Assembly (NCBI RefSeq): GCF_003231495.1
Contig: NZ_PQWO01000013.1
Coordinates: forward strand, 120,001-152,000
Reading direction: 5' to 3'
Length of the DNA stretch: 32,000 bases
DNA from: Acaryochloris thomasi RCC1774
GTDB lineage: Bacteria > Cyanobacteriota > Cyanobacteriia > Thermosynechococcales > Thermosynechococcaceae
Shown: piece by piece, positions 5,763 to 30,341 of the stretch
Position numbering within the stretch: the stretch's first letter is position 1
Layout of the letters: each line of letters starts with the position of its first letter
Made by a program: the position numbers and the translations under genes
The notes under the pieces: model-generated
The model's input: the letters and a program-made list of their open reading frames with translations, nothing else
Databases searched by the model: none
Told to the model about the DNA's origin: nothing

Positions 5763-5875
5763 GGGTTTTTTCTAGGGAAATTAGTAGATTTTCAATATTA
5801 GCGGATCACTCTTTAACAGGGGGGCTAAATACCCACAACACCATACCTTCTTTTGGGTTCAAGACGATGCAATCC

Positions 5876-7189: not shown

Positions 7190-7502
7190 TATGGCCTTGA
7201 AGGTAAGATTGTTTTCTTTATTCTGCTTGATTTTACGGTTCGATGAGGCAAAATCTTCAACGCTCAGTCTTTCCTTACCTTCAACCAAAGCACAACAGAT
7301 AAAGTGCCGGGAATTCACGGCCAACCTTAGAAGCAACCTCAATGAATTGGCCGCGACGCCATCTCTTGACATACTTTAGATTGGGATTGGCAGGTGCCGT
7401 CGGCGCATCCTCATAGAATGCATCATAAGCGACCTGTTTCAGCTTCCCTCATGCCTCAGTCTTTCGCAGCGAAAGGTAGAGTCGTGTCTCAGGTTACCCA
7501 TC

Positions 7503-7926: not shown

Positions 7927-7956
7927 TTTATACGTATATACATCGTTCCTCGTGGC

Positions 7957-15164: not shown

Positions 15165-15201
15165 CTCTATGTTTAGTTCATGAACTAAATGAACTCATGA
15201 A

Positions 15202-15291
15202 CGCCCAGGAAATCTTGTTGATTTCCTGGGCGTGTGGGTAAACCCCAGCTCTAAAGCCCTCTAAGTGATTAGGGAATTTGAGCTGGGGTTT
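15202..15291 (+). terminator. Two stem-loops downstream of the second antenna gene
   Basis: The first is a perfect 12-bp stem, CGCCCAGGAAAT (15202-15213) with ATTTCCTGGGCG (15221-15232), and a 7-nt loop. The second is an 11-bp stem, AAACCCCAGCT (15240-15250) with AGCTGGGGTTT (15281-15291), followed by GCTTTGTT. There is no strong U-tract after the first. Confidence 0.45.
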
Positions 15292-15420
15292 GCTTTGTTC
15301 TGCGGTAGAAAGCTATTGAAGGTGTTTAGCCTGAGTCAGGCAAAGTTCTAGAGTGCTAGTTTTGAGTGAGACAACCCTAGGCAAGGCTCTGCCTAAGGTT
15401 GAGTATCGAGCAAAGTCTGG

Positions 15421-15455
15421 ATAAAAATGCGATCGCAAGTTCTGAACTTGCGATC
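15421..15455 (-). terminator. Intrinsic terminator of the 1877-aa gene
   Basis: It lies 28 nt after the TAG stop (15484-15486) on the minus strand. The stem is a perfect 11-bp pairing of GATCGCAAGTT with AACTTGCGATC (15431-15455) and a 3-nt loop. On the minus strand it is followed by GCATTTTTAT. The stem embeds a HIP1 site. Confidence 0.6.
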
Positions 15456-15483
15456 TCAAAGCATCACCTATCGCTTACTGCAG

Positions 15484-18400
15484 CTAAACAATAGTAGAGA
15501 AGCTCTCGAACGTGAGTTTGTCTTGATTGGCCTTCACCCCATCGAGAACAGCGAGGTTCTGTCCTGTCTCGAGCAGTTGAATAAACGTGTTCTCAGTTCC
15601 GACAGTAACGCCCAACTGTTCAACCGTTAATTCGTCAGCCAATCCGAGGGTATCCACGCCGACCTGATAGTCACTGATTGTGTCTCTGCCCTGATCCACT
15701 TCAAGAACGAACACATCAGCTCCAATACCACCAGTCAAAACATCACGACCGGCACCTCCAACGAGCGTATCTTCGCCGCGCCCCCCTATGATCCGATCTA
15801 GACCGTCGCCACCTAGCAACAGATCGTTGCCTCGTTTTCCGAAGAGAATATCGCGATCCTCGCCACCATCAAGGGTGTCACGACCCGCACCCCCTTTAAT
15901 ATTGTCGCGTCCGGCACCGCCTTCGAGAAAATCGTTACCGACTAAACCACGAAGCACATCATCGCCGTTCAGTCCCTCAATAAAATCAGCATCAGCGGTT
16001 CCGATTAGCACATCACGATCATCAGTTCCTGAAATACCGGCTCTATCAACCCCTGCTAAACCCACTCGCGGATCAATATCTAAAGGCTGTTCTAACTTGA
16101 TTTGGATAATCTCGTTATTGTCGATGTCAGGTCCGCGCCCCACAGAGAAGGGATAGTTGTTGTCGTTGGCGACCAGTAAGGTATCCTCATCTAGCACCAG
16201 AACATCCTCAATCGTCACGAAGGGGAAATCAAAGGTGGTTTCTCCATCGCCATTGAGATCGTTAGGGTCTTGAATATCAAGTAAATCAACCAGCTCTTCT
16301 TTGCGAACGAAACCTTCTTCGTCTATATCTGAGAGATTCACCTTGAAGATTTTCTTGAATGCGGCCTCCTCGCCTTGGTTGCCATCGCGCTCAATCACCA
16401 GGTATTCGCTGGCGTTAATCGCGGTGAAGTCACCGATGGCGTGGCTAGGGTCATCAAGCTGATAGCGGCCCAAAACGCCTTGGTATTCACTAGAGGCCAC
16501 ATCAAAATCGTAGATGCGAAGCGAGCCTTCGGGATCACCTTCTACGGTCCCTTCTAAGAGTGGGTAGAGGGTTTGACGATCGGGGCTAATGGCTAAACCT
16601 TCAAACCCTCTAGAACCGTTAATGTTAGCCACTGCATCACCGGACTGAACGTCTGGATTCTGAGGCGATCGCACCTGATCCGCCACCAACTGATCTCGAA
16701 CCAAGTCACCGGTATTGGGAAAGTCAGTGAAGAAACCGTCTACCCCGATCTCAATCAGTTGCTGAATCTCTTCTTCCGGAGTCTGGGACGTTCCGTCTGC
16801 ATTCAGAGTTAGGAATCGCTCTTCATTGCGCAGGGTATAGGGATGAACCTGCAGACCTGCATCGTGGGCATCATCAACAAAGGATGTCACTTCGCCTGTG
16901 AGCTGGCTAGTGATTTCAGCGACGCCATCACCGTCAGCGTCGACAGGTGTTTCTAGCGCGTCTCTGAGCAGGAAGTTATTTTTCCATGGACCTGCACCTT
17001 CAGCGTATCGTTGACTGATCACCTGCAAAAATTCAGGGTTATCGAGGTCGCTGTAGAGCGTGTCCTCAGACAGCGGATTTTCAGCAGCATCAAGGAATTC
17101 CTGGCCATAGATTTCCACTAGATTATTGCGCTGCTGCACATTAAAGCGGATATCAAAAGGCACCGAGAACGTCTCATCAGGATTTGCGCCATCGGTGGCA
17201 TTTCCATAGAGCTGCACGAGGGGAATATCACCAAGATCTTCGGCATCCAGCATCGCTTGAAGTTCGATCAGGTTCTGAAATTCAAAGGATTGAATAAAGA
17301 TCCGATTGGGGTCAGTAAAGCCAGTTTCTTGGAGTGTATCAATGAGTTTCTCCTCTAAAGAAAGTCCCTGGAGATCAAAGAAGGTAGGATGCTTTGTTTC
17401 AGGGTAGATACCCACGGCTCGGCCAGTCTCAGCCTCAACTTCTTGAACTAGCTCAATAACTTCCTGGAACGTGGGAATTTCGAAGGCATCATTGAAATCT
17501 TGAGAGCGGAAATTGCGGGACTGAACGGCACGAAGCTGCTTGATCTCAGCGAGGGTAAAATCCTCAGCGAAGTAAGCTGTTGTTTCAACGCCATCCAGAA
17601 ACTTTGTAGACATCCGTTCAGAACCGAAGACCTCAGCGACGTTGGTGGTGTCGTCCAGGATCGGTTCATGACGGGCAATGAGAACACCGTCTTTGGTGCT
17701 GACCAAATCTGGTTCGATGAAGTCTGCGCCTTGTGCGATCGCAACTCGATAAGCCTCAAGCGTATGCTCAGGCAAAACACCGCTAGCTCCCCGGTGACCA
17801 ATCACAATGGGATCTTGACTATTAAGCGTATTGAGTTCTACTGGATTGGGGGTCGGAATCGGGGCATCCAACAACGTCCCGTTCGCACCAAAGTGGAGCA
17901 GATAGGGACCAAACTCATCACCGACGTAGATGTCACCATTGCTGCCAATGACGAAGGATTCAATATCAAAGTCAGCCCCGGTGAGCAAACGCTCGGTCGT
18001 GTCTCCGTTTTGGATATCGAAGGGAATCAGGCCATTGGGATCGCTGAGCTGAATAAAATCTTCAATCTCAACACTGCCGTCGCCCCCTTCAGAACCGACA
18101 AAACTGGGGTCAGCCCTATAGAGTCTGAGAAGGTAATCAGCACTGTTTTCTTGAGCGCCGAAACCATTGTCAGACAAAAACCAGAAGCTGCCGTCTCTGT
18201 CAGCAAACTGAACACCACTAAAGCCCTGGACAGGCTGCCCTTCAAAAGGACCGGTGCGGCCATTAGCATCAATAGGGTTACCCTCACCGTCATCGTTTCC
18301 GGCAGGTGGCCCTTCAGCAAAGGTATCGGCAGGCAGGGAAGCAAAGCCAACCAACTCCGAGCTCGGCGCGTCGGGTGCCACTCCAAACAGCGTTTGATAT

Positions 18401-21117
18401 GCCACCCGATAAATATCAGTGTTGTCTGTCGTGGCTGGCAGTAGGTCTGCGTTTAGACCATAGGTTTTGGAGACAATCCCTCCGTTAACGTCAGAATCAG
18501 TAGCCCAGGCAACGCCAAACTCAAACGTATCGCCGTTCGCATCAGGAGCCCCAGTCACAAATGGTTCAAAGATATCAGTGCTGAAACCAGGCACGTCATT
18601 GCTACCGTCAACATCATCGACTTGGACCAGTGTGCCGTCGGCTTCATCACCAAAGGCAGCCAATTCGGCTTGAGTCCGAAGTGTTAGCCCAGAATCAGGC
18701 AGCTCTGGATCAAGTCCAAATCCATCAATAGGCACATCATCAACCTCTAGCCCCCCTGCGTCAGAATCTGCAGCCGTAATCACCAAGGTGTTGGGATCAG
18801 TATTATCAACAAAATCAAGAGCAACACCAATTGCCTCATCCGCACGCAGGGCTGCTTCAATGGTGCCGGCAGCATTGTTATCGTTACCAAAGTTGTCTGT
18901 TCCTTCTTCTTCCAAAGCTAAGAAGAAACCATCAGGATCGCGGTCTAGAATGGGCAGCGCCACCTGGAGCATCTCAGCAACAGTAGGTGGATTGGGATTT
19001 AGGGGCGGCTGACCGTAAAGGATTAAATCGCCATTCTCATCCACCAATCCATCTCGCCGCAGTTCGTCCTCAGAAAAGTCGTTATAGGTATCTTCAGCAG
19101 CAAAGATGCCTAACAGGCGATCGGTGGTAGTAGAATCAACGGCCAGCAGTTCCTCGCGGTCAAAAACAACTGTATAACCTGCTGCTTCAGCTTCTTCAAT
19201 CAGGTTGCGGCCGTCAGTACGCGTCCCTTCTTCGCCAAAAACACCAGTGGTTCCAACTGGCAGGTAATCGGTTTCACCGGCCCCAAGGATCACATCTGGT
19301 CGCTGATCCAAGATTTCAGCGGTAATTTCCTCCGTTTGGCCCCGATTGTCCACATCAGCCAGAAAGACGCCGGTTCCGGGTTCAGCAATAAAGCCAGAGT
19401 TAATGATACCGACTGCTTTTCCTGCGGCCTGGGCCTCTTGGGCAATGGTGGCATTCTGACCAGAGAGCGCAGTAATCTCTTGACCTCCTTCATCAACCGG
19501 CGCATCAAACCCAAAACTGCCCGAAAAGGGTTTAACACCGTAGGCGTGAACAACAGCCCCAGCGTTTGATGTAGAAACTAGACGATCTTCAATATGGCCT
19601 AGATAAACGCCCGCGTTACTCAACTGATCCCAATTCAGGCGACCATCAGTCCCTTTGGATGCAAGCCTTGCCGCCGCATAGTGGGAAGGACTGGTTCCGT
19701 CCGGATGAATGAAAATCACATTGCCAGTATCGGACGTCGGTTCTGGCGCTTCACGAGGCACGAGATCATCAGGCACGCCCTCTGGTGCATCTAAACGAAC
19801 ATCAAACAGACTCTCGTAGATTAATCGATAAATGGTTGTGTTATCGAGAGTTGCAGGTAGGCGCTCAGCCCCTTCCCCGTAAGCCTTAGAAACAATACTG
19901 CCCGCGAAGTCCGGTAGGCCTGCCCAAGCAACACCGAATTCATAGCTGTTGCCGTTGGCATCAGGAGCACTGACAAAGGGTGCGGTATCACTGCCAGTAG
20001 TCCCATCCAGCGGAACTGTAATACCGCTATCTTCTCCTGCTTCGTCCAACTGTGGCTGGGTGGTGGTGGTTCCCACCGTCGGACCGGAAACATCATCAAT
20101 CTCTAAAGCGCCTCCCGCACTGTCGGCAGCGGTGACGACAAAGGTATTAGAGTTGACGTTCTCAATAAAATCTCGGGCTACCCCAATAGCAGCATCGGCT
20201 CTTAAGGTGGCATCAATTGTGCCGCGGGCATTGTTATTGTTGCCGAAGTTGTCTGTGCCTTCTTCTTCGAGAACAATGAAAAAACCATCTTCTTCTTGAC
20301 TAAAGAGATCAAGATTGAGTGTTGCCTGCAGCATCTCGGCCACAGTGGGCGGATTGGGGTTAATGGGTGGCTGACCGTAGGTAATCAGTTCACCGTTTTC
20401 ATCGACAAGACCATCTTCAATGAGTTGTCCTTCGGGCACATCGTTGTAGGTATCATCGGCAGCAAACACACCCAAAACTCGCTCGGTATCTGCTGGAAGG
20501 CTTTCCAACTGCTCATGAGTGTAGACAACGGTGTAACCCAGTGCCTCTGCTTCTTCAATCAAGTTACGACCATCGGTGCGGGTCCCTTCTTGGCCGAAGA
20601 AACCAGTCGTTCCGATGGGTAAATAATCAATTTCACCCGCAGCCATGATTACGTTCACGCCAGATTCCAAAACCTGGGCGGTGATGCCCTCGCGATCGCT
20701 ACGGCTCTCAGCATCAGCCAGAAAAACACCCGTCCCAGGCTCAGCAACGAAACCTGAGTTAATGACGGCTGTCGGACGACCCGCAACAATGGCCTCTTCC
20801 AGCGCGGTTGCATTTGGAGCCGAACCAGCAACATTCTGCCCCTGTAAGGCAGCTAGAGACTGGTATTCATCACCATTTTCATCAAAGCCAAAGCTGGGAG
20901 CCACGGCCTTGATGCCGTAGGCGTGAACCACAGCGCCTGCATTAGACGTTGCCACAACCTGATCATCCAGATGCCCAAGATAGACACCAGCAGCAGGGGC
21001 TTCATCCCAATTCAAGCGACCATCGGGGCCCACTGATTCAAAACGGGCGGCTGCAAAGTGGGACGGGTCCGCACCATCTGGATGGATAAAAATGACATTA
21101 CTCGTCATAGTCTTCAC
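15484..21117 (-). CDS. Giant secreted multidomain phosphoesterase: 2x alkaline-phosphatase-fold, phytase-like propeller with inserted GDPD, RTX array
   Basis: 1877-aa ORF. There is a GTG at 21117, but the ATG at 21108 preceded by GAGGTG is the more likely start. There is no signal peptide. AP-fold repeat 1 is aa 6-445 (nt 19783-21102) and repeat 2 is aa 466-920 (nt 18358-19722). The two repeats share NVIFIHPDG, TSNAGAVVHAYG, EGTRTDGRNLIEEAEA and NPNPPTVAEMLQ. The phytase-like (PF13449-type) N-part is aa 924-1095 (GFSGVQFADRDGSFWFLSDNGFG). GDPD is aa 1100-1475 (IGHRGASGVLPEHTLEAY...FIEPDLVSTKDGVLIARHE). The phytase-like C-part is aa 1495-1680 (SRGFEGLAISPD, YLVIERDGN, LLVANDNNYPF). Twelve RTX nonapeptides cover aa 1697-1804, followed by a 73-aa tail. 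Confidence 0.85.
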   Translation of the reverse strand: MKTMTSNVIFIHPDGADPSHFAAARFESVGPDGRLNWDEAPAAGVYLGHLDDQVVATSNAGAVVHAYGIKAVAPSFGFDENGDEYQSLAALQGQNVAGSAPNATALEEAIVAGRPTAVINSGFVAEPGTGVFLADAESRSDREGITAQVLESGVNVIMAAGEIDYLPIGTTGFFGQEGTRTDGRNLIEEAEALGYTVVYTHEQLESLPADTERVLGVFAADDTYNDVPEGQLIEDGLVDENGELITYGQPPINPNPPTVAEMLQATLNLDLFSQEEDGFFIVLEEEGTDNFGNNNNARGTIDATLRADAAIGVARDFIENVNSNTFVVTAADSAGGALEIDDVSGPTVGTTTTQPQLDEAGEDSGITVPLDGTTGSDTAPFVSAPDANGNSYEFGVAWAGLPDFAGSIVSKAYGEGAERLPATLDNTTIYRLIYESLFDVRLDAPEGVPDDLVPREAPEPTSDTGNVIFIHPDGTSPSHYAAARLASKGTDGRLNWDQLSNAGVYLGHIEDRLVSTSNAGAVVHAYGVKPFSGSFGFDAPVDEGGQEITALSGQNATIAQEAQAAGKAVGIINSGFIAEPGTGVFLADVDNRGQTEEITAEILDQRPDVILGAGETDYLPVGTTGVFGEEGTRTDGRNLIEEAEAAGYTVVFDREELLAVDSTTTDRLLGIFAAEDTYNDFSEDELRRDGLVDENGDLILYGQPPLNPNPPTVAEMLQVALPILDRDPDGFFLALEEEGTDNFGNDNNAAGTIEAALRADEAIGVALDFVDNTDPNTLVITAADSDAGGLEVDDVPIDGFGLDPELPDSGLTLRTQAELAAFGDEADGTLVQVDDVDGSNDVPGFSTDIFEPFVTGAPDANGDTFEFGVAWATDSDVNGGIVSKTYGLNADLLPATTDNTDIYRVAYQTLFGVAPDAPSSELVGFASLPADTFAEGPPAGNDDGEGNPIDANGRTGPFEGQPVQGFSGVQFADRDGSFWFLSDNGFGAQENSADYLLRLYRADPSFVGSEGGDGSVEIEDFIQLSDPNGLIPFDIQNGDTTERLLTGADFDIESFVIGSNGDIYVGDEFGPYLLHFGANGTLLDAPIPTPNPVELNTLNSQDPIVIGHRGASGVLPEHTLEAYRVAIAQGADFIEPDLVSTKDGVLIARHEPILDDTTNVAEVFGSERMSTKFLDGVETTAYFAEDFTLAEIKQLRAVQSRNFRSQDFNDAFEIPTFQEVIELVQEVEAETGRAVGIYPETKHPTFFDLQGLSLEEKLIDTLQETGFTDPNRIFIQSFEFQNLIELQAMLDAEDLGDIPLVQLYGNATDGANPDETFSVPFDIRFNVQQRNNLVEIYGQEFLDAAENPLSEDTLYSDLDNPEFLQVISQRYAEGAGPWKNNFLLRDALETPVDADGDGVAEITSQLTGEVTSFVDDAHDAGLQVHPYTLRNEERFLTLNADGTSQTPEEEIQQLIEIGVDGFFTDFPNTGDLVRDQLVADQVRSPQNPDVQSGDAVANINGSRGFEGLAISPDRQTLYPLLEGTVEGDPEGSLRIYDFDVASSEYQGVLGRYQLDDPSHAIGDFTAINASEYLVIERDGNQGEEAAFKKIFKVNLSDIDEEGFVRKEELVDLLDIQDPNDLNGDGETTFDFPFVTIEDVLVLDEDTLLVANDNNYPFSVGRGPDIDNNEIIQIKLEQPLDIDPRVGLAGVDRAGISGTDDRDVLIGTADADFIEGLNGDDVLRGLVGNDFLEGGAGRDNIKGGAGRDTLDGGEDRDILFGKRGNDLLLGGDGLDRIIGGRGEDTLVGGAGRDVLTGGIGADVFVLEVDQGRDTISDYQVGVDTLGLADELTVEQLGVTVGTENTFIQLLETGQNLAVLDGVKANQDKLTFESFSTIV
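15706..16029 (-). repeat. RTX (GGxGxDxUx) nonapeptide array, 12 uninterrupted in-phase units
   Basis: GTDDRDVLI GTADADFIE GLNGDDVLR GLVGNDFLE GGAGRDNIK GGAGRDTLD GGEDRDILF GKRGNDLLL GGDGLDRII GGRGEDTLV GGAGRDVLT GGIGADVFV (aa 1697-1804). Confidence 0.9.
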
Positions 21118-21722
21118 CTCAATCGGAGAACTAATACTCTGGGCTTATTACTAAAAGCGAAACGGACAACAGCTTTCCAAAATCACATTAAAAACTGCGA
21201 AAAGGCACTCTCAAGAGAAGAAAAAACAATATCTAAAACAAAAATTCCCAACTACATCAACTGCATCAAAGAAGAGAATCAATCATGAAATACGTGCTAA
21301 AAATGCTACGCAAAATCCAAACTCATTAAACAGGATCAAGAGATACGTAAAAATACAAGTACTCTCATATCCCTAATAAGCATAGTCTCACCATCACAGC
21401 GAAAACAGGTTAAAGTCTAGTTCAAAAACCACTAAGATAAAATTAAATTCATAATGACACGTAGATGTATTCATAAAAACTATTTTTCATAAATTCTGTT
21501 TTTTAAGTATCTTCATTTATACAAAAAGCCATCATCTAAAAAAAGATAACGGATTTCAGCAAGAAGGAGAAATAGACTACATTTCTAGTTCGGTACACAA
21601 ATGAGTATTTATTTTTCATCTAATTTCTCTCAAGCTCAACCTCAGATTTCAGCTTAAACATCAGTTTTTTTTCTACCAACAACTCATAAGTGGTTGGCTA
21701 TTAAAACCAAGTTAGAGGCAAT

Positions 21723-21752
21723 CTACTGGAGAGCATGTTTGCTCTCCAGTAG
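21723..21752. other. Perfect 12-bp hairpin inside the AT-rich spacer between the giant genes
   Basis: CTACTGGAGAGC (21723-21734), loop ATGTTT, GCTCTCCAGTAG (21741-21752). It is a GC-richer island in AT-rich surroundings, with no flanking U-tract on either strand. It lies about 350 nt downstream of the stop of the 2439-aa gene, so it may be a terminator or an RNA-stability element. Confidence 0.4.
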
Positions 21753-22099
21753 CCTTCCGCAACAAATTAATATGCCAATCTTTCAGAGAATAATATTGCT
21801 ATATGCTTTATCAGGAGTAATAGTTAAATTAAATTCAGTGCTATGCAAAAACAGCCGATCATTTTCATTTAACTCAAGTCAAAAGGAATACTTTCATAAA
21901 AACCGACATCCACCTAATTGATCAGGCGAATTAACAACTACCTAAGGCCAGATGAATAAGAGTTTAAGAATTAGTTTCATCAAGCTGACACTAGAAGCAA
22001 TCACAAAGACTACTATTGAAATTTCATCAATTCAGACTTCTTAGAAATTCAGAAAGACATTGAGATAATACGCAGCACTGCTTCGAGGGCAGTTGACGA

Positions 22100-25000
22100 T
22101 TAAACTACGGATGAGAAGGTTTGAAAGGTCAAATCTTCTACCTCCGCAGCGACATTACTCAACACGGCAAGTTGCTGATTCTCCTCCTCAAAAACAATCA
22201 GGGTATTGCCGCCTTGAATGGAGACCCCGAGCTGATCAACGGTCAACCCATCCGATAGCCCCAGAGCATCTTGCCCCATCTCGAAGTCACGAATGAAATC
22301 TCGACCTTGACCGACTTCTAGAACAAACAGATCAGCGCCACGTCCTCCAGAGAGCAGATCACGGCCCGACCCGCCAATCAGCGTATCAGCCCCAAGGTTG
22401 CCTGCAATTTGGTCACGGTCTGCGCCTCCTGATAACAAGTCAGCTCCCCTGCCGCCAAGGATAAAATCGTTACCATTACCGCCCTCGATAACATCATCAC
22501 CGCGTCTGCCATCCAGTCGGTCAAAGCCGTTGCCGCCCAATAGAGTATCGTGGCCTGCTCCTCCTCGAATATTGTCGGAGCCATTATTGCCTAACAGGAA
22601 ATCATCACCCAACAGCCCTCGGATCACGTCGTTACCGTTCAGCCCCTCGATGGCATCTGATTCAGCAGTTCCGATCAGCACGTCGCTGAAGTTGGTGCCG
22701 GTAATCTCATTCACCTGAGGGGCATCGATCACCGTATCCTCACGGAAGTTGAGGTTCTGGATGCGAGTGTCTTCTGCTGGATCCGTTTCTGCGTCGCTGA
22801 AGGCAGGCGTCGTCGCATCATCGTCCGCCGGGAAGTTAGTGGCCAAGTACTCAGCAAGCACATCTTGCTCGGTGCCTGGATCGGCGAAGGTTGCAGCGCC
22901 AGCATCGGTCAATACATCAGGAAGATCAACACGATTAGCCTCTGGACCTGTGGGGAACGGATATCCGTCACCACCATCGGCAAGGAAATTCAGGGTCACA
23001 ATGCGGAAAGTGCGGCTGGTCTCGCCCACCAGCTCTCCGCCTTGAACCACGGTGTCGATATCGTTGCCGTCTGCATCTGTGATCGTAAGAGACTGTACTC
23101 TATCGCCAGGGTCAGCATCGGGATCGAAGCTAAATTGAACCCCAGAAATCTGAGAAAACTGACCGGGTGTAGCGCCTTCTTCAGTGGCCGCAACGCTGTG
23201 CTCAACTACCTCTAGTAGCTGATCAGCCGTCAAGGTCAGCAGCGTCAGGCTGTTGTTGAAGCGGAGAGAATTATCGATATCTAGCTGAGAAATTTGACCT
23301 TCTTCCTTGCCCGAAACAGGGTTAGCCTGTGGCGGTAACTCCTTACCGTCGGCGTCGATTTCGCCGATGGGTGCCCGAATCCCGCCGCCGTTCTTAAGAG
23401 AAAGAACAACGGTCTCGTCAAAGGCCTGTGCCGCTGCAAGGTTGGCATCGGCAGTCAAGTTTCCAATATTGGTCTCTTCGGTGCGGACGCTCTCTCGCCG
23501 ACCGTCGATAAAGACATCGGTTTGACCAAAGACGTTGCCGTCTTGCTCTGCTACGACATCCGAGACGGCATTGGTAAGCTGCTGAACTCCGGTGGCTTTT
23601 GTCGAAGATGCGATGGCCGAAGGCCGGCCTTCGGCCATCGCATCTTCGACACCCTCAGTCCCGTATACCTCATTGACCACCTCATCTGTGGTGGCATAGG
23701 CGCCACTCACCTCAGAATCAACGCTATCGGTAATCACGTTACCTTCAGCATCAAACTCTAAAACCAGACGACCCACATAGCTATATTCACCGTCTGTACT
23801 GACGATCAGCACAGGGTTGCCGTTGGCATCGGTGGTCTCAAAGGGATAGTCCCCATCAGCTACATCGCCGGGTCGGAGCGTATCTGTTGCATCGGCCAAG
23901 AGCGTATCGGAGCCGCCGGCAATAATCACATCCACACCGTCTAAAAGACCCGCTAACTCCTGCTCCAGTGCAATTTGCTGCAGGTGAGAGACCAAGACGA
24001 TCTTGTTGATGCCCAGGTCACGGAGGCGATCCACCTCGGGCTGTAGGGTCTCCGCTAGGGCCACCATGTTGTTCTCTTGGGGACCAATGACGGTTGTGCC
24101 CGTGGGTGAAGAAATACTGTCCAGAATCTGGGTGGTGGCACCAATGACGCCGATTTGTTCACCACCTTCGTCAATAATCGTCGAGGGAGCAATCTTCGGT
24201 ACTTCAGTCCCTGCAAGGGATTGCTCCGGCCCCGTGCGGAAGTCTGTATTCGTCAGGATCTCATTGGTGAACAGCTCACTAAGCACTTCATCACCGGAGA
24301 AATCAAGGTTTGCTGAGAGGTAAGGGAATAGAGCGCCGACATTGCGATCGTCTTCAAGACCTGGATCTCTGAAATCAGGCGCAATGATATCGGCCAGGGT
24401 ATCCGAACCGAGGTCAAATTCGTGGTTACCGATTGCTGAGGCATCGAAACCTATCAGGTTCATGATCGCGATATCGACTCGGCCACCGCCTTCGCGCAAA
24501 CCAGCGTAGAAATCTTCAATCGCATCGCCATCCACATCCGCCGGCAAGTTGAAGAGGCCGTTGTAGAGGTCGTTAAAGATGCCGCTATCTCGGAACGCAG
24601 CCTGATCGCCTGCGGCATTAAAGAAGGGACCGGCGAGATAGTTATCGCCTGCCGAAAGCGTGATGGAGTTCTCAAACTGATCTTCAAAATTATCAATGAG
24701 AGCCGCAAAATTGGGGGCGCGCCCAATGGCATCGACTCCCCCCTCTAAATCCGATGCATGGAGAATCTGCAGCGTGAAGTTACTGGCTGGTGCATCAGTG
24801 CCGATATTCAAGCGACTCACAAGAGGTTCGTGGTCACTGGCGACCACCGTATCGTTAAATTCAATTGCATTATCGTCACGGGTAAAGTCGTTATTAACGT
24901 GAACAATGTCAAATTTCGCCTCTGGGAGTAGCGAATCGCTGACAAACGAGTGGTCCAGGACCTGACTGTTGCCATCGAAAATGAAGGTTGAGGCATCTCC

Positions 25001-28000
25001 ACCGGCCTCAGCTTGGGAGACGAGGTTCGTCAAAACCTGCTCATCTCCGGTACCCGGCAGAATCTCAGCAAGGTCATTCGTGAACTGAAAGGTATTCAGA
25101 TCACCCGTCACAACGATATTGGCATCAGACTGCGCGGCCAACGCAGCATCAACATACTCGTTAATCGCCAGGGATTGAGCTTCCCGCTCTGCTTCAGCAG
25201 CTTGCACAAAGGGCTGAGTGCCACCAAAGATAGGGGTCGATCCAAACCGAGAGGAGAAATGATTATTAATGACCGTGACGGCCTCACCATTGAAGGAGAA
25301 GGTTCCTGCAAGAGGAATGCGGCTACCAGCGAGGGCGTCAGGATTGCTGACACCGGCTGATTCTAGATTGGCAGGTGTCAAAGCTTCGGTAGAGTCGAGC
25401 GAGACCCGTTCGGGGTTATAGAGGAAAGCATTGCGGATATTGCCGCCGGGAACGCCACCCTGTGGAATCGTACTTTCGTCGGCGCTGGAGTCGGCAAAGA
25501 CGTCAAAAAACTCGTAGGTGGGGCCGCCTGAAGTTGCGATCGCATCGACTAAATCCTGCAGAGTCTGAGAAGCGTCACTGACCGCAATGTTATCTCCTCC
25601 ACTTGCCCCATCGTTATCTTGGATTTCCTGGAGCGCAATAATGTCAGGTGAACCAAGATTAGCCACAATCTGCTCGGCCAGCAGCGATCGTTGTCGCGCA
25701 TCGGGATCGGTGACATCATCTTCCACCGCCGCTGTACTGGTCAAATTCAAGACGTTGTAGCTGGCAATCGTCAGCTGATCCTCGCTCCCCGTTAGCGTTG
25801 TGACTTCCTGCTCCAGGCCACCGGGGGTAACGACATTGACGGGTCCTGTCACATTAACCTCGAAGTTACCGAAGCTGTAACCGACCACTCCCGTTACATC
25901 TCCAAGCTGATCACCCACGTTTAAAGCCGGTGGTATCTCTTCTCCAGAAATTGTGGGATCAAACTGGATCTGAACCCGCTCTGGATTCTGATCGCCAGTA
26001 TTGTCAGGACCAGAGTTGAGGGGAATACCGCCCCGACTGTTGGGCGGATCGTCAGACGTTGCCCCCTGGTTAGGAAGCGTAAAGGCTTCTGCAGAGAAGT
26101 CACCAAAGACCCGCGTCGGTGAGACGGTGACCGCATCTTCAATCGTGACCCGCTGACCTTCAATACTTTCAAAGAAATCAATGGCATCATTTTCTGGATC
26201 AAAAGTATTCGCCGCATCGTCGGCTGTATCCCGTAGATTCACCGGCAGCTCATCGTCACTAATGACGGTTGTATTCGACGGTGACCGGCCACTCTGCCTA
26301 ATCACCACAGCTTCTGGCAAAGCATTACCACTGGAAAGAACCGTAATCTCAGAAGATGCAATCTGAGTAATGGAGAGGTTACCGGTATCGGCCCCACCTG
26401 GAATAAATTCGCCCACGGTGCCAGCAACCTCTAGCTGATCACCCACGGCAATGTCAGGGGTAGACCCAGTGAACACAAAAATGCCATCTGAAGTGTTGTC
26501 GTTGCCGTCGCCGGTGGGGTCTTGCAGGTAGAAACCATTGAAGGCCACTGCGGTCACAACACCACTCGTCGTCACATCGCTATCCACCAGCGTCGAGACA
26601 TGGCCCTCTCCCTGAATCGTGGAGATAGAGGTTAGGCCGTCACCATCGCCTAAATCATCAATCTCGAAAATCGTAGTACTCCCGCTGACTTCGTTACCGA
26701 CGACAAGTAAAGGAGAACCGTTGGGACTGTCTTCAGCAGAAATAAACAGCAATCCCTCAGGGCCAAGATCGCCTGCCGCAGGGTTCAGTGTGCCGTCGGG
26801 TAGCTCCACATCAACGGTGAAGTCACGATTGTTGATGTACTGAACAAACTCAGAGTTTGCCGGATCAGAGACATCGAACACCACAATGCCACCAATCCGC
26901 TCTAGACCGATAAAGGCGTAGGTGCGATCGCCCACAACGCCCACCGCGAGGCCTTCTGGCTCTGGCCCACTGTCATTGCTACGGCTATCAAAACTCCCAT
27001 TTTCATCATTATCGGAGTTGAAGGCTTCTGGAAGTAACTCTGCCGTAATCCGTTCGAGCTGGTCCCCGCTGTCAAACACTAAATTGCCCAAGGCATCGCG
27101 GATAGAAAAAGAACGGGAGCCAAAGGCAAATAGCTGATCGAAGTCGCCATCACCATCGATGTCCCCATCTACGCTGGAAACCTCTAGACGCCCCAAGTTC
27201 TCTTCGAGCTGGAGATTGGCAGCATCAGGAAACGCCTCTGGGTCGAGTGTCAAATCTTCGACACGCTCAATATCGGTGAGATCGTCAAAACTATCTCGTC
27301 CATCACCTTCGTTAGCTGTGATGAAGAAGGTCTGACCATTGGCATCAAAAGAAGCAATGGTGTCGGGCTGGAACAATCCAAAAACCGGAAAATTATCAAT
27401 ATTGATACCCCCATCTTCATCGCTAGGATCTAAGCCATTGGTGGCTTCATCGAAGCTGATTAGCCCCAGTTGAGTGGATGTGCCAGGGCCTTCATAGTCG
27501 TTGTCGTTAATGACGGCAAGGCGGCCATCCTCAAGGAGAGCCAAGCCTTCGGCTTGAGCACTAGGACTAAAACCAAGGGACGGTAAATTCGTGACTTGAA
27601 TCTTGTTAACAGGTTGAATGCCTGCTGCGACAAGTTCATCAGGGGAGAGCTGCTCTATTGTGGTGCCTTCAGTTGCGTTGGATAAATCGGTCCCCAGAAT
27701 ATTTGTGGCTCCCTGGAGGTCAATCTGAAAAATGCGTTGCTGGGCTGTATCGATGTCTTCGTTATCGCGTTCAATGACATAAAATTGTCCATTTCCTGCG
27801 AACACCACATCGCCAATGCGATCGACTTCAGCATCACCAAAGTCGATCCCAGAATCTGTGGTGATCAATGATGGCGTTTGCAGAACGTAGACAAATTCCT
27901 CCACTGGCTCTCCAGTCGTTGGATCAATGCCTAAAATCCGCAGGATGCTAGATCCGTTACTGGTGTCAGTATCGGGGTTAGAAAGTGGCGTTTGAATAAA

Positions 28001-29419
28001 GCCGTACACGATGTTGCGTTCATCATCAAAAGCGATGCCTTCGAACCCTCGGTTGTTGCGACGGTTCAAGTAAACTTCAGGGAGTGTTTCAGTCCCAAAC
28101 GTTCCGGCGGTCGCACCTGATTCGTCTTGGGCGGCAAAGCCAGTGGGCACAAATCGATCAATCAATACGCCTTCAGAGGAAAAGACATTGATAGAGGGTC
28201 CCTGTTCGTCAGCAACAAAGAGGTTACCGTTCGGGGCTCTGACAATGCCTTCGCTGTCTAGGCCAAAAGGGTCGTTGGGCAGTGGCTCACCTGTAGCCGG
28301 ATCAACGGGTACTTCAAAAAATCCTGGAATGTTTGGCAGTCCTGTGATGGGAACTTGGGCCCCGTCTACCTCACGGGTCAGGCCCAGGCGATCGACAACA
28401 GAAACCTGACCAGAGGCTTCATCTAACTCGAGTGTGAGGACGGTGACCTGAAGATCGGGAACCAAGAAAGGGCGATTGCTTGAATCAGGATCGGGCGTAT
28501 CAATCGTGCCACTAACGGGGCCACGATCATTAATAGCCAAGAACCGCGGATTACCGTTCTCTGGATTGACGCCATCGAAGGCGAGTCCCGACAGCCCACC
28601 TAGAAAAATGGGATTGCCATCAGCATCCGTTCCGATTTGAAAGGAGTCTGTTGTTAGGTCAGGAATATCAAAGGTTTCGAGCTGCGGCAATCCTCGACTA
28701 AAGTCTGTAACGCCCAGGGGTAGAATATCCACCAACTCGGCAGTTTCAAGATTGACCACTGCAATGGCATTGTTCTCTTGCAGCGTCACAAAGGCAGTGC
28801 TGCCATCGGGAGCGACAGAGATAAATTCAGGCTCTAAATCTTGAGCAACGGTGCGACCGGGGAAGATGCGAACACCGTCACCTCGCAAATCGTTCTCGCG
28901 TCCATTAAAGGCAGAGAAATCAGCCGTTGCTACGGTTGCACCCTCTACTCCCTCAGTTAGATCGATGATACTTATAGACCCTTCGGGATCGAAAGTCAGC
29001 AAATCATCGTCATCACCAACGGGTTCGCCCTCATTCGCCACTACTAGCCTGGTACCATTCGGCGTAAAGGTGACGGCGTCTGGCAAAACGCCGACTCCAA
29101 CGACATTCAAGAGGCTTAGGTCAGCTGCATCAAAGAAGGCAACCGTTCCAGTTTCGGTGGCTGTGACATCCTCTAGAGCGACAGCAACAACTCCATTGGC
29201 AACGGCAACGCTGTTAGGTCCACCGCTGAGGCTGACGTCAATCGCGTCAATGAGGGTCGGACGGGTTGGGTCTGAGAGATCAAGAACATCAATACCGTTA
29301 CTATCACCATTGACAACAAAGAGTCTTTGACTAACTGAGTCAAAGGCCACAATTTCAGCGGCGCTTTCATCGAAGACACCCGTCGCAAATGTACCAATTT
29401 GATTGAGTTCAATTGCCAT
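22100..29419 (-). CDS. Giant secreted multidomain protein: choice-of-anchor-I propeller with inserted phytase-like domain, ExeM/NucH-type EEP nuclease, 5'-nucleotidase/metallophosphatase, RTX array
   Basis: 2439-aa ORF starting at ATG 29417-29419, with no signal peptide. The choice-of-anchor-I N-part is aa 1-245 (FATGVFDESAAEIVAFD, LVVANEGEP, VTLQENNAIAVV). The phytase-like domain is aa ~270-645 (GGLSGLAFDG, NRGFEGIAFD, FYVIERDNE, LAVINDNDY). The choice-of-anchor-I C-part is aa ~660-920 (GGINIDNFPVFGLFQPD, FITANEGDGRD, GPEPEGLAVG, NEVSGSTTIFEI). The nuclease N-region plus EEP domain is aa 925-1537 (nt 24809-26647; IASYNVLNL, IIALQEIQDNDG, TGDLNTF, ASDHEPLV). The metallophosphatase plus 5'-nucleotidase C-domain is aa 1548-2225 (nt 22745-24778; LSAGDNYLAGP, AIGNHEFDLG, NGGGIRAPI). 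Fourteen RTX nonapeptides cover aa 2241-2366, followed by a 73-aa tail. Confidence 0.85.
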   Translation of the reverse strand: MAIELNQIGTFATGVFDESAAEIVAFDSVSQRLFVVNGDSNGIDVLDLSDPTRPTLIDAIDVSLSGGPNSVAVANGVVAVALEDVTATETGTVAFFDAADLSLLNVVGVGVLPDAVTFTPNGTRLVVANEGEPVGDDDDLLTFDPEGSISIIDLTEGVEGATVATADFSAFNGRENDLRGDGVRIFPGRTVAQDLEPEFISVAPDGSTAFVTLQENNAIAVVNLETAELVDILPLGVTDFSRGLPQLETFDIPDLTTDSFQIGTDADGNPIFLGGLSGLAFDGVNPENGNPRFLAINDRGPVSGTIDTPDPDSSNRPFLVPDLQVTVLTLELDEASGQVSVVDRLGLTREVDGAQVPITGLPNIPGFFEVPVDPATGEPLPNDPFGLDSEGIVRAPNGNLFVADEQGPSINVFSSEGVLIDRFVPTGFAAQDESGATAGTFGTETLPEVYLNRRNNRGFEGIAFDDERNIVYGFIQTPLSNPDTDTSNGSSILRILGIDPTTGEPVEEFVYVLQTPSLITTDSGIDFGDAEVDRIGDVVFAGNGQFYVIERDNEDIDTAQQRIFQIDLQGATNILGTDLSNATEGTTIEQLSPDELVAAGIQPVNKIQVTNLPSLGFSPSAQAEGLALLEDGRLAVINDNDYEGPGTSTQLGLISFDEATNGLDPSDEDGGINIDNFPVFGLFQPDTIASFDANGQTFFITANEGDGRDSFDDLTDIERVEDLTLDPEAFPDAANLQLEENLGRLEVSSVDGDIDGDGDFDQLFAFGSRSFSIRDALGNLVFDSGDQLERITAELLPEAFNSDNDENGSFDSRSNDSGPEPEGLAVGVVGDRTYAFIGLERIGGIVVFDVSDPANSEFVQYINNRDFTVDVELPDGTLNPAAGDLGPEGLLFISAEDSPNGSPLLVVGNEVSGSTTIFEIDDLGDGDGLTSISTIQGEGHVSTLVDSDVTTSGVVTAVAFNGFYLQDPTGDGNDNTSDGIFVFTGSTPDIAVGDQLEVAGTVGEFIPGGADTGNLSITQIASSEITVLSSGNALPEAVVIRQSGRSPSNTTVISDDELPVNLRDTADDAANTFDPENDAIDFFESIEGQRVTIEDAVTVSPTRVFGDFSAEAFTLPNQGATSDDPPNSRGGIPLNSGPDNTGDQNPERVQIQFDPTISGEEIPPALNVGDQLGDVTGVVGYSFGNFEVNVTGPVNVVTPGGLEQEVTTLTGSEDQLTIASYNVLNLTSTAAVEDDVTDPDARQRSLLAEQIVANLGSPDIIALQEIQDNDGASGGDNIAVSDASQTLQDLVDAIATSGGPTYEFFDVFADSSADESTIPQGGVPGGNIRNAFLYNPERVSLDSTEALTPANLESAGVSNPDALAGSRIPLAGTFSFNGEAVTVINNHFSSRFGSTPIFGGTQPFVQAAEAEREAQSLAINEYVDAALAAQSDANIVVTGDLNTFQFTNDLAEILPGTGDEQVLTNLVSQAEAGGDASTFIFDGNSQVLDHSFVSDSLLPEAKFDIVHVNNDFTRDDNAIEFNDTVVASDHEPLVSRLNIGTDAPASNFTLQILHASDLEGGVDAIGRAPNFAALIDNFEDQFENSITLSAGDNYLAGPFFNAAGDQAAFRDSGIFNDLYNGLFNLPADVDGDAIEDFYAGLREGGGRVDIAIMNLIGFDASAIGNHEFDLGSDTLADIIAPDFRDPGLEDDRNVGALFPYLSANLDFSGDEVLSELFTNEILTNTDFRTGPEQSLAGTEVPKIAPSTIIDEGGEQIGVIGATTQILDSISSPTGTTVIGPQENNMVALAETLQPEVDRLRDLGINKIVLVSHLQQIALEQELAGLLDGVDVIIAGGSDTLLADATDTLRPGDVADGDYPFETTDANGNPVLIVSTDGEYSYVGRLVLEFDAEGNVITDSVDSEVSGAYATTDEVVNEVYGTEGVEDAMAEGRPSAIASSTKATGVQQLTNAVSDVVAEQDGNVFGQTDVFIDGRRESVRTEETNIGNLTADANLAAAQAFDETVVLSLKNGGGIRAPIGEIDADGKELPPQANPVSGKEEGQISQLDIDNSLRFNNSLTLLTLTADQLLEVVEHSVAATEEGATPGQFSQISGVQFSFDPDADPGDRVQSLTITDADGNDIDTVVQGGELVGETSRTFRIVTLNFLADGGDGYPFPTGPEANRVDLPDVLTDAGAATFADPGTEQDVLAEYLATNFPADDDATTPAFSDAETDPAEDTRIQNLNFREDTVIDAPQVNEITGTNFSDVLIGTAESDAIEGLNGNDVIRGLLGDDFLLGNNGSDNIRGGAGHDTLLGGNGFDRLDGRRGDDVIEGGNGNDFILGGRGADLLSGGADRDQIAGNLGADTLIGGSGRDLLSGGRGADLFVLEVGQGRDFIRDFEMGQDALGLSDGLTVDQLGVSIQGGNTLIVFEEENQQLAVLSNVAAEVEDLTFQTFSSVV
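22322..22699 (-). repeat. RTX nonapeptide array, 14 uninterrupted in-phase units
   Basis: GTNFSDVLI GTAESDAIE GLNGNDVIR GLLGDDFLL GNNGSDNIR GGAGHDTLL GGNGFDRLD GRRGDDVIE GGNGNDFIL GGRGADLLS GGADRDQIA GNLGADTLI GGSGRDLLS GGRGADLFV (aa 2241-2366). Confidence 0.9.
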
Positions 29420-30059
29420 GGAAAACCTTTACCTATAGAAAAAGAAAAATTGAATTAACTGAATGCGCGATCAGATTCGCTTTTCCAACGCCGTTTTTCA
29501 GCACCGAACGGGAAAAGTTAAAACTAGACAACAACGTCCAAGTCAGAGACAGAGCAAGCTATCAGAAGCTCCAAACACTCCAGCAAAGAGACTCCTGCCG
29601 TCACAGAACCTTATTTCAGGCTCACGCTGCAGAGTGAGACTGAAGCAGGAAAGTAGAGAATCAGCGATTGCAGGCAAACAACCAGGAGGCTGATTAGAAA
29701 ACCTCAAAATATTTGTTAGTTCTTCAACTAATGAGCTGCAGCTAAATAAACGCTCAAGATTTACGCTGCTTAACACTCAGACTTGACCGCAGCCGAAATC
29801 CCCTTGATTAGATTCCCAAGGATATGTAAATACCAGGACAAGAAGAGATTAAGGCCAGCAGTATTTTCGTTTAAAGTTGGCTTAAGTCAGTCAATGCAAA
29901 GCTGAAAGTTCTGGGCAAGCAGCCTGAAGCAATCATGTTCAAAACGCAGCCGCCCCTAAATCTAAGCCATGCTTATTTTGACGGCGAAGCTGTCTAGCAA
30001 GAACAATTAGACCAGACAAGAGGGATGCAATAGAGAGTCTTTATGCTGAAATCTAAAAA

Positions 30060-30132
30060 TGGAGCTAAGCGGATTCGAACCGCTGACCCCCTGCATGCCA
30101 TGCAGGTGCTCTACCAACTGAGCTATAGCCCC
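30060..30132 (-). tRNA. tRNA-Ala (anticodon GGC)
   Basis: The minus strand reads GGGGCTA-TA-GCTC-AGTTGGTA-GAGC-A-CCTGC-ATGGCAT-GCAGG-GGGTC-AGCGG-TTCGAAT-CCGCT-TAGCTCC-A. This folds into a 73-nt cloverleaf with the G3:U70 Ala identity pair and the T-loop GTTCGAATC. CCA is not encoded, and the gene is followed by TTTTT. Confidence 0.95.
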
Positions 30133-30341
30133 AAGGAATATTCATCATGCCTTGAAAGCTGACATGCCGTCAAGAATGTGTCTAATCCTCGCCCCTCTCA
30201 ACACAAACAATAGCTTTTGTAAACGATTTAGATAAGAAAAGCTAATAAGCTTCATCAAAACAACTGATGTTTTTGGCTATGATTGAGGCATCCAGATGCG
30301 GGTGATGCATCATCTGCATGTTGTCACTGAGGAAGCAAGCC

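Follow-up and report, generated by a model that had tools for sequence, protein, structure and literature searches.

Dissolved organic phosphorus is a major phosphorus (P) source for marine phototrophs. In Synechocystis PCC 6803, the phoA-nucH operon (sll0654-sll0656) is activated by SphR, is induced by P limitation, and carries tandem 8-bp Pho boxes at 11-bp spacing (PMC1906773). PhoB of Synechocystis also directly induces a type I secretion system (T1SS) gene cluster together with an RTX protein that is the most abundant exoprotein under P limitation; this case, Sll0721, shows that cyanobacterial T1SS export can be under Pho control (PMC11126600). Here we describe two neighbouring giant genes, gene 1 and gene 2, from the marine cyanobacterium Acaryochloris thomasi RCC1774, which lie on a 32,000-nt stretch of chromosomal DNA (the window; all coordinates are window positions). 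We consider it likely that both encode phosphate-starvation-inducible, T1SS-exported exoenzymes that mineralise dissolved organic phosphorus outside the cell. An earlier note on this DNA had proposed such extracellular mining of organic P, and the reading is now supported by the domain calls, Pho-box arrays, T1SS linkage of homologues, and the recurrent clustering and fusion of the cargo modules.

Both genes are members of a large and modular family, found mainly in cyanobacteria, that is annotated automatically, experimentally uncharacterised, and has clear known analogues. The atypical alkaline phosphatase (AP) family PhoAaty was defined by four motifs that are common to Synechococcus elongatus PCC 7942 PhoA and to proteins of marine picocyanobacteria, Aphanothece, dinoflagellates, haptophytes, diatoms and green algae, and that are also present in marine animals such as sea urchin, oyster, limpet and amphioxus (Lin et al. 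2015; PMC4548154). PhoAaty enzymes are induced by P stress, and the recombinant enzyme ACAAP from the dinoflagellate Amphidinium is reactivated by Ca2+, Mg2+ or Mn2+ and not by Zn2+ (PMC6723241). In the MSP130 proteins of animals, the choice-of-anchor I (COA-I) domain forms a propeller of seven blades, and Ca2+ sites are predicted in it (PMC11878542). ExeM of Shewanella oneidensis is a sugar-unspecific endonuclease that needs Ca2+ plus Mg2+ or Mn2+ (PMC6085458). Finally, a 2010 review of RTX proteins had already predicted that about 20 of them are nucleases, nucleotidases or phosphodiesterases, that four are phytases and that five are phosphatases; its count for Acaryochloris marina was 28 RTX proteins (PMC3034196).

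Enzyme modules of gene 2 and gene 1

Gene 2 would combine in one chain essentially what the phoA-nucH operon of the Synechocystis Pho regulon encodes. Like that operon, in which an atypical AP lies beside an extracellular NucH-type nuclease, gene 2 has PhoAaty and NucH-type modules and similar upstream Pho-box arrays. Unlike it, gene 2 fuses phosphatase, nuclease and 5'-nucleotidase in a single 2439-aa RTX protein with a nested phytase-like propeller, and its neighbour is a different enzyme set, composed of two AP-fold domains and a glycerophosphodiester phosphodiesterase (GDPD) domain. The relationship is drawn from family models and motifs, not from direct alignment. Since PhoAaty motifs are found together with nuclease and 5'-nucleotidase-like modules, we regard gene 2 as a putative fusion in which an atypical PhoA is joined to a NucH-type nuclease and a 5'-nucleotidase. 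Profile searches matched this protein to PF22494/NF038117, PF13449, PF03372/PF19580, PF02872 and PF00353, of which NF038117, PF13449, PF03372, PF02872 and PF00353 had been proposed.

The choice-of-anchor I domain with which gene 2 opens scored 568 bits against NF038117 (cutoff 300) and 367 bits against PF22494 (cutoff 32). Its function had been described as unestablished in the earlier note, a description that no longer holds: the domain carries all four AP motifs of the published PhoAaty motif table, namely PDAVTFTPNGTRLVVANEGE (residues 113-132), EPEFISVAPD (196-205), FVTLQENNAIA (210-220) and FFITANEGD (698-706), and because all four are present we assign it, on motif evidence, to the PhoAaty atypical AP/MSP130 family. 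The four motifs are shared with S. elongatus PCC 7942 PhoA and the dinoflagellate and haptophyte APs; unlike those proteins, the gene 2 domain is the first of several catalytic modules and is split between motifs 3 and 4 by a phytase-like domain of about 370 aa, a nesting that recurs in the Pfam domain orders of the orthologues. An AlphaFold2 model of residues 1-935 (pLDDT 72, pTM 0.64) searched with Foldseek against the PDB returned only generic tandem beta-propellers (TM 0.13-0.19); the all-beta, two-propeller character of the model is consistent with the domain calls and gave no functional lead.

The nuclease module scored 38.5 bits against PF03372 (cutoff 24.5), contains the canonical EEP motif set (ASYNVLN, ALQEI, GDLN and SDHEP), and matched an EEP protein in the PDB (9sf9/9sf8) with E=5e-74 over residues 932-1537. 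In common with ExeM and NucH it aligns end to end with NF033681, and unlike them it has no GlyGly-CTERM or membrane anchor and sits in an RTX/T1SS-type protein. The module that follows resembles UshA, CD73 and YfkN of Bacillus subtilis, a multi-domain secreted nucleotide phosphoesterase, in its PF02872 match, its GNHEFD motif and most of its metallophosphoesterase motifs (~1e-35 against CD73). The GenBank record names the gene 2 protein YfkN, and YfkN-type NCBIfam models are the best full-length matches for the module, but at 129 bits against an equivalog cutoff of 2554. It departs from UshA, CD73 and YfkN in motif I, which is D-L-E instead of D-x-H, in motif V, which is GGSDT (aligned opposite GGHSNT of CD73) instead of GGH, and in PF00149, an expected match that was undetected even at E 0.05. 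The 23 homologous domains compared all have D-x-E as motif I and GGS(D/N/H)T as motif V, and GNHEFD is conserved in them. The 5'-nucleotidase call thus stands as far as PF02872 and GNHEFD are concerned and falls short at the canonical D-x-H/GGH dimetal ligands.

The domains proposed for gene 1 (PF00245 twice, PF13449, PF03009 and PF00353) were likewise all found. Its GDPD, which is nested within the phytase-like domain in gene 1 and in the Pfam orders of the orthologues, has the canonical catalytic motifs HRGASG, PEHT, EPD and ARHE and matched GlpQ structures (PDB 1t8q/1ydy) at E~1e-36. Escherichia coli GlpQ, a periplasmic, Ca2+-dependent enzyme, has the same HRGASG...PEHT...E-x-D...H set; the gene 1 domain differs from it in sitting within a PF13449 propeller and sharing its chain with two AP-fold domains and an RTX array. 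In the case of PF13449, "phytase" is only a family name and not an established biochemical activity.

The AP-fold of gene 1 aligned with bacterial APs in the PDB (7tm9, E. coli PhoA) at about 1e-21. Relative to E. coli PhoA, a Zn2Mg enzyme, the two modules keep the equivalents of Ser102, Arg166, Asp51, Glu322, Asp327 and Asp369; unlike PhoA, they are tandemly duplicated, have no signal peptide, and replace the zinc-ligand residues His331, His370 and probably His412 with Asn, Ser and Asp. For AP-fold domain 2, mutually agreeing HMMER alignments to three PDB alkaline phosphatases placed D51/S102/E322/D327/D369 at D473/S517/E736/D741/D784, H331 at N745 and H370 at S785, and R592 is the R166 equivalent. 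Domain 1 retains the nucleophile Ser and the Asp, Arg and Glu residues, and its His ligands are replaced. When 40 domain copies from 21 proteins were aligned, the nucleophile Ser, the Arg and carboxylate positions, and the N745 and S785 replacements were invariant in 40/40 copies, as were E579 and T582. Extending a conserved AYG...TDxTD anchor without gaps brings D876, also invariant, to the position of H412, which this Asp probably replaces. A local pairwise alignment with a C-terminal fragment of E. coli PhoA placed the anchor for domain 1 and was spurious for domain 2, and the change from H412 to Asp is therefore rated as probable only. The modules also differ from PhoA at Lys328 (Asn) and Asp153 (Glu). 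By these alignments, the AP-fold module is a conserved variant of the PhoA fold that lacks the ligand histidines; a metal site may be rebuilt by H471, H479, H508 and H524, four His residues that are invariant elsewhere in the module. As canonical His metal ligands are lacking in the AP-fold and the 5'-nucleotidase-like modules, their activity and metal use are less certain than the earlier note assumed.

Predicted phosphate control and type I secretion

To score Pho boxes, an 8-bp matrix was built from the 19 triple sites printed in Su et al. 2007 and applied at an 11-bp period; a Pho-box site was taken to need three or more 8-bp boxes (consensus about CTTAACCT) in tandem, separated by 3-bp linkers and lying upstream of a gene. 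The candidate array of gene 2 reads CTTAAGCC aac TTTAAACG aaa ATACTGCT ggc CTTAATCT ctt CTTGTCCT ggt ATTTACAT, and within it lies the best three-box site of the window on either strand (29853-29824). The best four- and five-box arrays of the window are upstream of gene 1 and gene 2, all sense-oriented, and the five-box score of each was reached by none of 500 shuffles of its own intergenic region. The gene 1 orthologue of A. marina is preceded by a five-box array (TTTAATCC-ATTATTTT-CTTAAACT-CTTTTTTT-CTTAAAGT), and a 63%-identical gene 2 orthologue has the same upstream pattern. More broadly, at 35 of 71 cyanobacterial loci with a tandem AP module, the best four-box array of the ~20-kb locus is sense-oriented and at most 1.2 kb upstream of the AP gene, where position alone would place 2.7; AT-rich intergenic bias inflates these figures somewhat, not thirteen-fold. 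Taken together, the arrays make the predicted membership of both genes in the Pho regulon well supported. The published Pho-box string of S. elongatus phoA had no exact match in representative-genome contigs.

The two genes look like separate transcription units rather than an operon, because a terminator-like hairpin follows each stop codon and a 982-bp spacer (21118-22099; 33-35% G+C, against ~51% for the window) lies between them. The spacer contains no convincing open reading frame (ORF; the longest, of 75-76 aa, are unsupported) and no Rfam match, and an Rfam scan of the long upstream regions of gene 1 and gene 2 gave none either. Scans for sigma-70 promoters and terminators returned counts no different from shuffles, and only the two hairpins after the stop codons were retained. 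The upstream region of the A. marina gene 1 orthologue is likewise very long (1355 bp) and AT-rich. Upstream of gene 2, a tRNA-Ala(GGC) at 30059-30133 (-) lies ~170 nt from the Pho-box array and limits the regulatory region to ~640 bp.

Several features of the proteins point to export by type I secretion. Both have an isoelectric point of 4.05, in keeping with the strong acidity noted before, and neither contains cysteine. As judged by residue composition and hydropathy, neither has a signal-peptide-like N-terminus, as had been claimed: there is no basic or hydrophobic N-region, with no K/R in the first 10 residues and a maximal Kyte-Doolittle 12-mer of 0.57 (gene 1) and 1.05 (gene 2), and the catalytic domains begin at residues 4 and ~3, the catalytic motif NVIFIHPDG of gene 1 running from residue 4. 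Near the C-terminus of each, RTX repeats (GGxGxDxUx) run in register, scoring 74.6 and 71.9 bits against PF00353 (cutoff 23), and the RTX blocks match CyaA and serralysin structures in the PDB by sequence search. The arrays are uninterrupted, as described earlier, and were called long too generously, 12 and 14 nonapeptides being a moderate, ordinary size. The proposed homology of the C-terminal tails is borne out by 55% identity across the last ~200 aa; the homologous 73-aa tails have hydrophobic ends. A tail motif (DF..G.D.IGL...) occurs in 84 of the 240 best homologues, with the typical end ...D-F-V-F-A/V, and 235 of these 240 giant homologues (1000-4200 aa) have at most one Cys, a near-uniform scarcity that would be consistent with export in an unfolded state. 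We take the tail to resemble the acidic-plus-hydrophobic C-terminus of protease/lipase (PrtD/AprD) class T1SS substrates. Like the RTX exoproteins of PrtD/AprD-AprE systems (serralysins and lipases), both proteins are acidic chains that lack Cys and a signal peptide, with contiguous repeats close to the C-terminus and a tail that ends in an acidic residue followed by hydrophobic ones; unlike them, they carry a phosphoesterase chain rather than a protease, lipase or toxin, and their genes are unlinked to transporter genes.

Transporter linkage is found in homologues. P0133, which has the gene 2 architecture (55% identity, 100% coverage), is followed directly by an ATP-binding cassette (ABC) gene of the PrtD family and an AprE-type membrane fusion protein (MFP) gene (locus L006, GCA_028279885.1 JANQMX010000054.1, 9064-19671). 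Since the nearest named relatives of this ABC protein are from Kiloniellaceae and Pelagibius, the P0133 copy probably sits in an alphaproteobacterium, which suggests that the whole mega-gene was transferred horizontally between marine phyla; no cyanobacterial-type Pho boxes were found at L006. A Sneathiella homologue with the same arrangement (P0175) also has ABC and AprE-type MFP genes immediately downstream. Within cyanobacteria, one co-oriented cluster of Calothrix sp. UHCC 0171 comprises COA-I/phytase-like, tandem-AP and PhoX-like genes, a peptidyl-prolyl isomerase, an ABC exporter with a cyclic nucleotide (cNMP) domain, and an MFP. Because RTX arrays, a shared tail, the absence of Cys and of a signal peptide, and transporter linkage in homologues coincide, both proteins are probably exported by type I secretion. 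Locus L005 (10001-25044) and other homologues, in Sneathiella, other alphaproteobacteria and a planctomycete, also bear on the suggested horizontal transfer.

The proposed role and its alternatives

From the observed domain identities and motif conservation we infer regulation, export and enzyme activity as follows. Upon limitation of inorganic phosphate (Pi), phosphorylated SphR (PhoB) would bind the Pho-box arrays 300-470 nt upstream and activate two separate transcripts. A PrtD/AprE/TolC-type system whose genes would lie elsewhere in the genome would then export the ~200 and ~256 kDa chains in unfolded form, with the C-terminus leading. Ca2+ drives the folding of RTX beta-rolls, and millimolar Ca2+ in seawater would fold those of gene 1 and gene 2 and load the catalytic modules. 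The EEP nuclease of gene 2 would cut extracellular DNA and RNA, its 5'-nucleotidase-like and PhoAaty modules releasing Pi from nucleotides and other monoesters. In gene 1, the GlpQ-type GDPD would cleave glycerophosphodiesters and the two AP-fold modules would release Pi from glycerol-3-phosphate and other monoesters, and the phytase-like propellers of both proteins may add further phosphoesterase or substrate-binding activity.

A number of observations weigh against this scheme. The Pho-box matrix is derived mostly from predicted sites, and the arrays are unusually distant from the start codons. The other window ORFs of at least 100 aa gave no match to T1SS genes, nor to pst, phoU or sphRS, as had been stated; a search for an A. 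thomasi transporter with the PrtD-type ABC protein of L006 found proteobacterial relatives only among those listed, and the clearest T1SS linkage is that of the probable alphaproteobacterial homologues. The GDPD scored 185 bits against the GlpQ equivalog model (cutoff 254) and is therefore a family member, not a GlpQ equivalog. The nuclease aligned with positions 1-545 of the 546 of NF033681, yet scored 166 bits against a curated cutoff of 300, short of the match that the earlier note had expected. The AP-fold modules could be inactive or have other substrates, and so could the 5'-nucleotidase-like module, in which two His ligands of the dimetal site are replaced. Gene 1 and gene 2 are not adjacent in A. 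marina or at L004, a locus with a 63%-identical orthologue. The literature searched yielded no expression, secretion or activity data for either protein or any close relative.

ExeM, moreover, is cell-associated rather than released and is needed for normal biofilm formation in Shewanella (PMC6085458), and among the RTX proteins of cyanobacteria many belong to the S-layer or serve motility (PMC3034196). These precedents fit proteins that are exported but held by Ca2+ at the cell surface, in an S-layer, sheath or adhesin layer, where they would act on substrates near the cell and serve the remodelling of biofilm or extracellular DNA as much as nutrition; the name choice-of-anchor I, given to proteins with alternative surface anchors, and the Calx-beta, PKD or DUF4114 modules of relatives point the same way. 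We nevertheless judge this unlikely, as profile domain searches detected no anchor, transmembrane or S-layer domain in either protein and the Pho-box arrays point to nutritional control. It also concerns final location and not function, and is compatible with P scavenging. Less probable still is that the proteins mainly manage mineral, calcium phosphate or carbonate, on the cell surface, in a role akin to MSP130-like biomineralisation. In its favour, choice-of-anchor I is the MSP130 fold, in which Ca2+ sites are predicted (PMC11878542), the two proteins bind Ca2+ and are very acidic, and Acaryochloris relatives occur in stromatolites; however, each of the remaining six enzyme modules is a phosphoester hydrolase, and Pho-box arrays and P-inducible PhoAaty activity fit nutrition, which leaves mineral management highly improbable.

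A further alternative addresses catalysis itself. Were the AP-fold and 5'-nucleotidase-like modules degenerate, serving as non-catalytic binding or scaffold domains or acting on substrates outside P acquisition, only the GDPD, nuclease and PhoAaty modules would be active, and the idea of consecutive pathway steps in one chain would fail. The loss of the PhoA zinc histidines (H331 to N, H370 to S, H412 probably to D) and of two dimetal histidines in the 5'-nucleotidase-like module would be expected from degeneration, as would the undetected PF00149 and a Pfam AP match limited to profile positions 3-322 of 423. However, the replacements are as invariant across the 40 AP copies as the equivalents of the nucleophile Ser, R166, D51, E322, D327 and D369, GNHEFD and other motifs are conserved in the 23 5'-nucleotidase domains, and proteins with the tandem AP module alone are 60-87% identical across many cyanobacterial genera, behind Pho boxes. 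Because of this conservation, a selected active site with different metal chemistry appears the better explanation, and we hold degeneration to be rather improbable. Phosphate-starvation-inducible, secreted phosphoesterases thus remain the likely identity of gene 1 and gene 2.

Nutrient co-limitation in the ocean is inferred from which metals phosphatases need: Zn in the case of PhoA, Fe/Ca in that of PhoX and Psip1. Against this background, we tentatively raise the possibility, which we think somewhat less probable than its converse, that nearly every catalytic module here has been rebuilt to work without zinc, giving a zinc-sparing, Ca2+/Mg2+-based toolkit for organic P in which the tandem PF00245 module is a distinct and widespread cyanobacterial AP class. 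It is suggested by the trend to oxygen ligands in the AP-fold and 5'-nucleotidase-like modules together with the use of Ca2+, Mg2+ or Mn2+ by GlpQ-type GDPD, PhoAaty and ExeM-type nucleases. If true, a PF00245 match in the genomes and metagenomes of marine cyanobacteria could no longer be equated with zinc-dependent PhoA, and arguments on marine Zn-P co-limitation would be affected. The conserved His-less PhoA fold and the His-depleted 5'-nucleotidase site are testable candidate zinc-independent phosphatases and, in our opinion, the most interesting lead from this locus. Separately, the gene 1 orthologue of A. marina (MBIC11017, CP000828.1 3091555-3117200; genes at 2284-8645) adjoins a Zur-type zinc cluster consisting of a COG0523 cobW gene (AM1_3070), an ALAD/hemB paralogue, znuABC and a cation-efflux gene, a neighbourhood that is suggestive given an AP-fold without zinc-binding His and may be a coincidence.

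Family distribution and features of the locus

The architectures of gene 1 and gene 2 had been thought unusual; they are in fact common, with hundreds of annotated relatives, and the locus itself is ordinary for its large family. Among scored candidates, the two protein searches returned 469 and 1313 relatives at E<=1e-10. The full-length gene 1 architecture occurs in A. marina (83% identity), Crocosphaera subtropica ATCC 51142, Leptolyngbya, Egbenema and many metagenome-assembled genomes (MAGs), and that of gene 2 in Acaryochloris MAGs, Leptolyngbyaceae and others; partial matches extend to Synechococcus PCC 7336, Rivularia, Dactylococcopsis, Halothece, alphaproteobacteria and a planctomycete. 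The tandem AP module is encoded by at least 580 stretches of species-representative genomes, and the best 80 of these, which exclude A. thomasi RCC1774 itself, are almost all from cyanobacteria-titled records of many orders. No study of the two proteins was found in the literature searched by locus tag, accession and organism.

Cargo modules recur together in varied combinations. Within 10 kb of the 80 tandem-AP genes, phytase/GDPD genes were found at 19 loci, COA-I at six, and EEP and 5'-nucleotidase genes at four each. At one locus (L019), the neighbours of a gene 1 orthologue (61% identity) are divergent COA-I/phytase/RTX and Calx-beta/EEP genes, and AP, phytase/GDPD, EEP and 5'-nucleotidase modules are fused in single proteins of 2563 aa from Hydrococcus (P0061) and 2937 aa (P0025). 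These arrangements suggest a shuffling toolkit of P-scavenging modules rather than a fixed two-gene system, in which phosphatase classes (PhoA-fold, PhoAaty and PhoX) appear to be swapped as cassettes. To call gene 1 and gene 2 a dedicated pair, as the earlier note did, was too strong: they look like separate transcription units, and their adjacency is not conserved in A. marina or at L004. Benthic and coastal cyanobacteria would carry predicted Pho-box-controlled, probably T1SS-exported mega-enzymes, single chains that unite modules of the nuclease, nucleotidase, diesterase and monoesterase types. The choice-of-anchor I annotation is now linked to experimentally known PhoAaty phosphatases, and comparisons of Pho boxes, T1SS linkage and module shuffling can guide the annotation of hundreds of similar giant proteins. 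Some relatives add or adjoin PhoX (PF05787; P0004-P0006, P0023, P0157, P0204, P0207, and L075 at 14127-16349), and others carry DUF4114, Calx-beta, lamin-tail or cadherin-like modules.

The description of the locus as two neighbouring, co-oriented genes was confirmed, both ORFs being on the minus strand (Table 1). The ORF list starts gene 2 at an ATG and gives gene 1 as 15484..21117 (-), 1877 aa from a GTG. The gene 2 product is 100% identical to PZD71856.1/WP_110987630.1 and that of gene 1 to PZD71857.1/WP_110987629.1, both of A. thomasi RCC1774, the latter deposited at 1874 aa. The start of gene 1 is likely the ATG at 21108 rather than the GTG at 21117, because GAGG lies 8 nt upstream of the ATG, the GTG falls within that Shine-Dalgarno sequence, and 1874 aa is the length of the database record. 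Of the sizes first given, 2439 aa therefore stands, and 1877 aa reflects a mechanical ORF call.

Table 1. Window coordinates of gene 1, gene 2, their modules and associated candidate features.
Feature	Position (strand)	Residues	Details
Gene 1 CDS	15484..21108 (-)	1874 aa	AP-AP-[phytase-like(GDPD)]-RTX-tail; likely start
AP-fold domain 1	19753..21099 (-)	7-455	PF00245, 98 bits (cutoff 24.4)
AP-fold domain 2	18343..19722 (-)	466-925	PF00245, 153 bits (cutoff 24.4)
Phytase-like domain, N part	17839..18237 (-)	961-1093	PF13449 positions 1-110, 78 bits (cutoff 27.6)
GlpQ-type GDPD	16738..17796 (-)	1108-1460	PF03009, 152 bits
Phytase-like domain, C part	16153..16710 (-)	1470-1655	PF13449 positions 98-284, 114 bits (cutoff 27.6)
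RTX array, gene 1	15706..16029 (-)	1697-1804	12 contiguous nonapeptides
C-terminal tail, gene 1	15487..15705 (-)		Putative uncleaved T1SS signal; ends ...TFESFSTIV
Candidate SphR/PhoB site, gene 1	21407..21458 (-)		Five Pho-box-like octamers, 11-bp period; 299-350 nt upstream of ATG 21108
Terminator-like hairpin	15431..15455 (-)		11-bp stem and T run; ~30 nt past gene 1 stop codon
Gene 2 CDS	22100..29419 (-)	2439 aa	[PhoAaty/COA-I(phytase-like)]-ExeM/NucH-5'-nucleotidase-RTX-tail
COA-I/PhoAaty, N part	28667..29365 (-)	19-251	PhoAaty motifs 1-3
Phytase-like insert	27494..28603 (-)	273-642	PF13449, 160 bits (cutoff 27.6)
COA-I/PhoAaty, C part	26660..27475 (-)	649-920	Motif 4, FFITANEGD
ExeM/NucH-type nuclease	24806..26569 (-)	951-1538	EEP core, residues 1219-1530
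5'-nucleotidase-like module	22958..24787 (-)	1545-2154	PF02872, 94 bits (cutoff 23.6)
RTX array, gene 2	22322..22699 (-)	2241-2366	14 contiguous nonapeptides
C-terminal tail, gene 2	22103..22321 (-)		Putative T1SS signal; ends ...TFQTFSSVV
Candidate SphR/PhoB site, gene 2	29824..29886 (-)		Six Pho-box-like octamers, 11-bp period; 405-467 nt upstream of ATG 29419
Terminator-like hairpin	21908..21931 (-)		~170 nt past gene 2 stop codon

The flanks comprise genes for PBP2, phosphoglucomutase, a DUF502 protein, aminopeptidase P, GuaA, LspA, BioY and BioB, two CP43/IsiA-like genes and tRNA-Ala. A phage, plasmid or mobile-element origin was considered, and the flanks are ordinary chromosomal housekeeping genes. 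The two CP43-like (PF00421) antenna genes, of the IsiA/Pcb type, stand in tandem at 12800-13831 (+) and 14121-15164 (+). The second carries a full-length match to the Rfam IsrR antisense RNA at 14610-14784 (-) (71 bits against a gathering score of 52) and is therefore isiA with its iron-stress antisense regulator. Cross-talk between P and Fe regulation via PhoB is known in Synechocystis (PMC11126600), and in A. thomasi isiA is convergent to the phosphate-scavenging gene 1.

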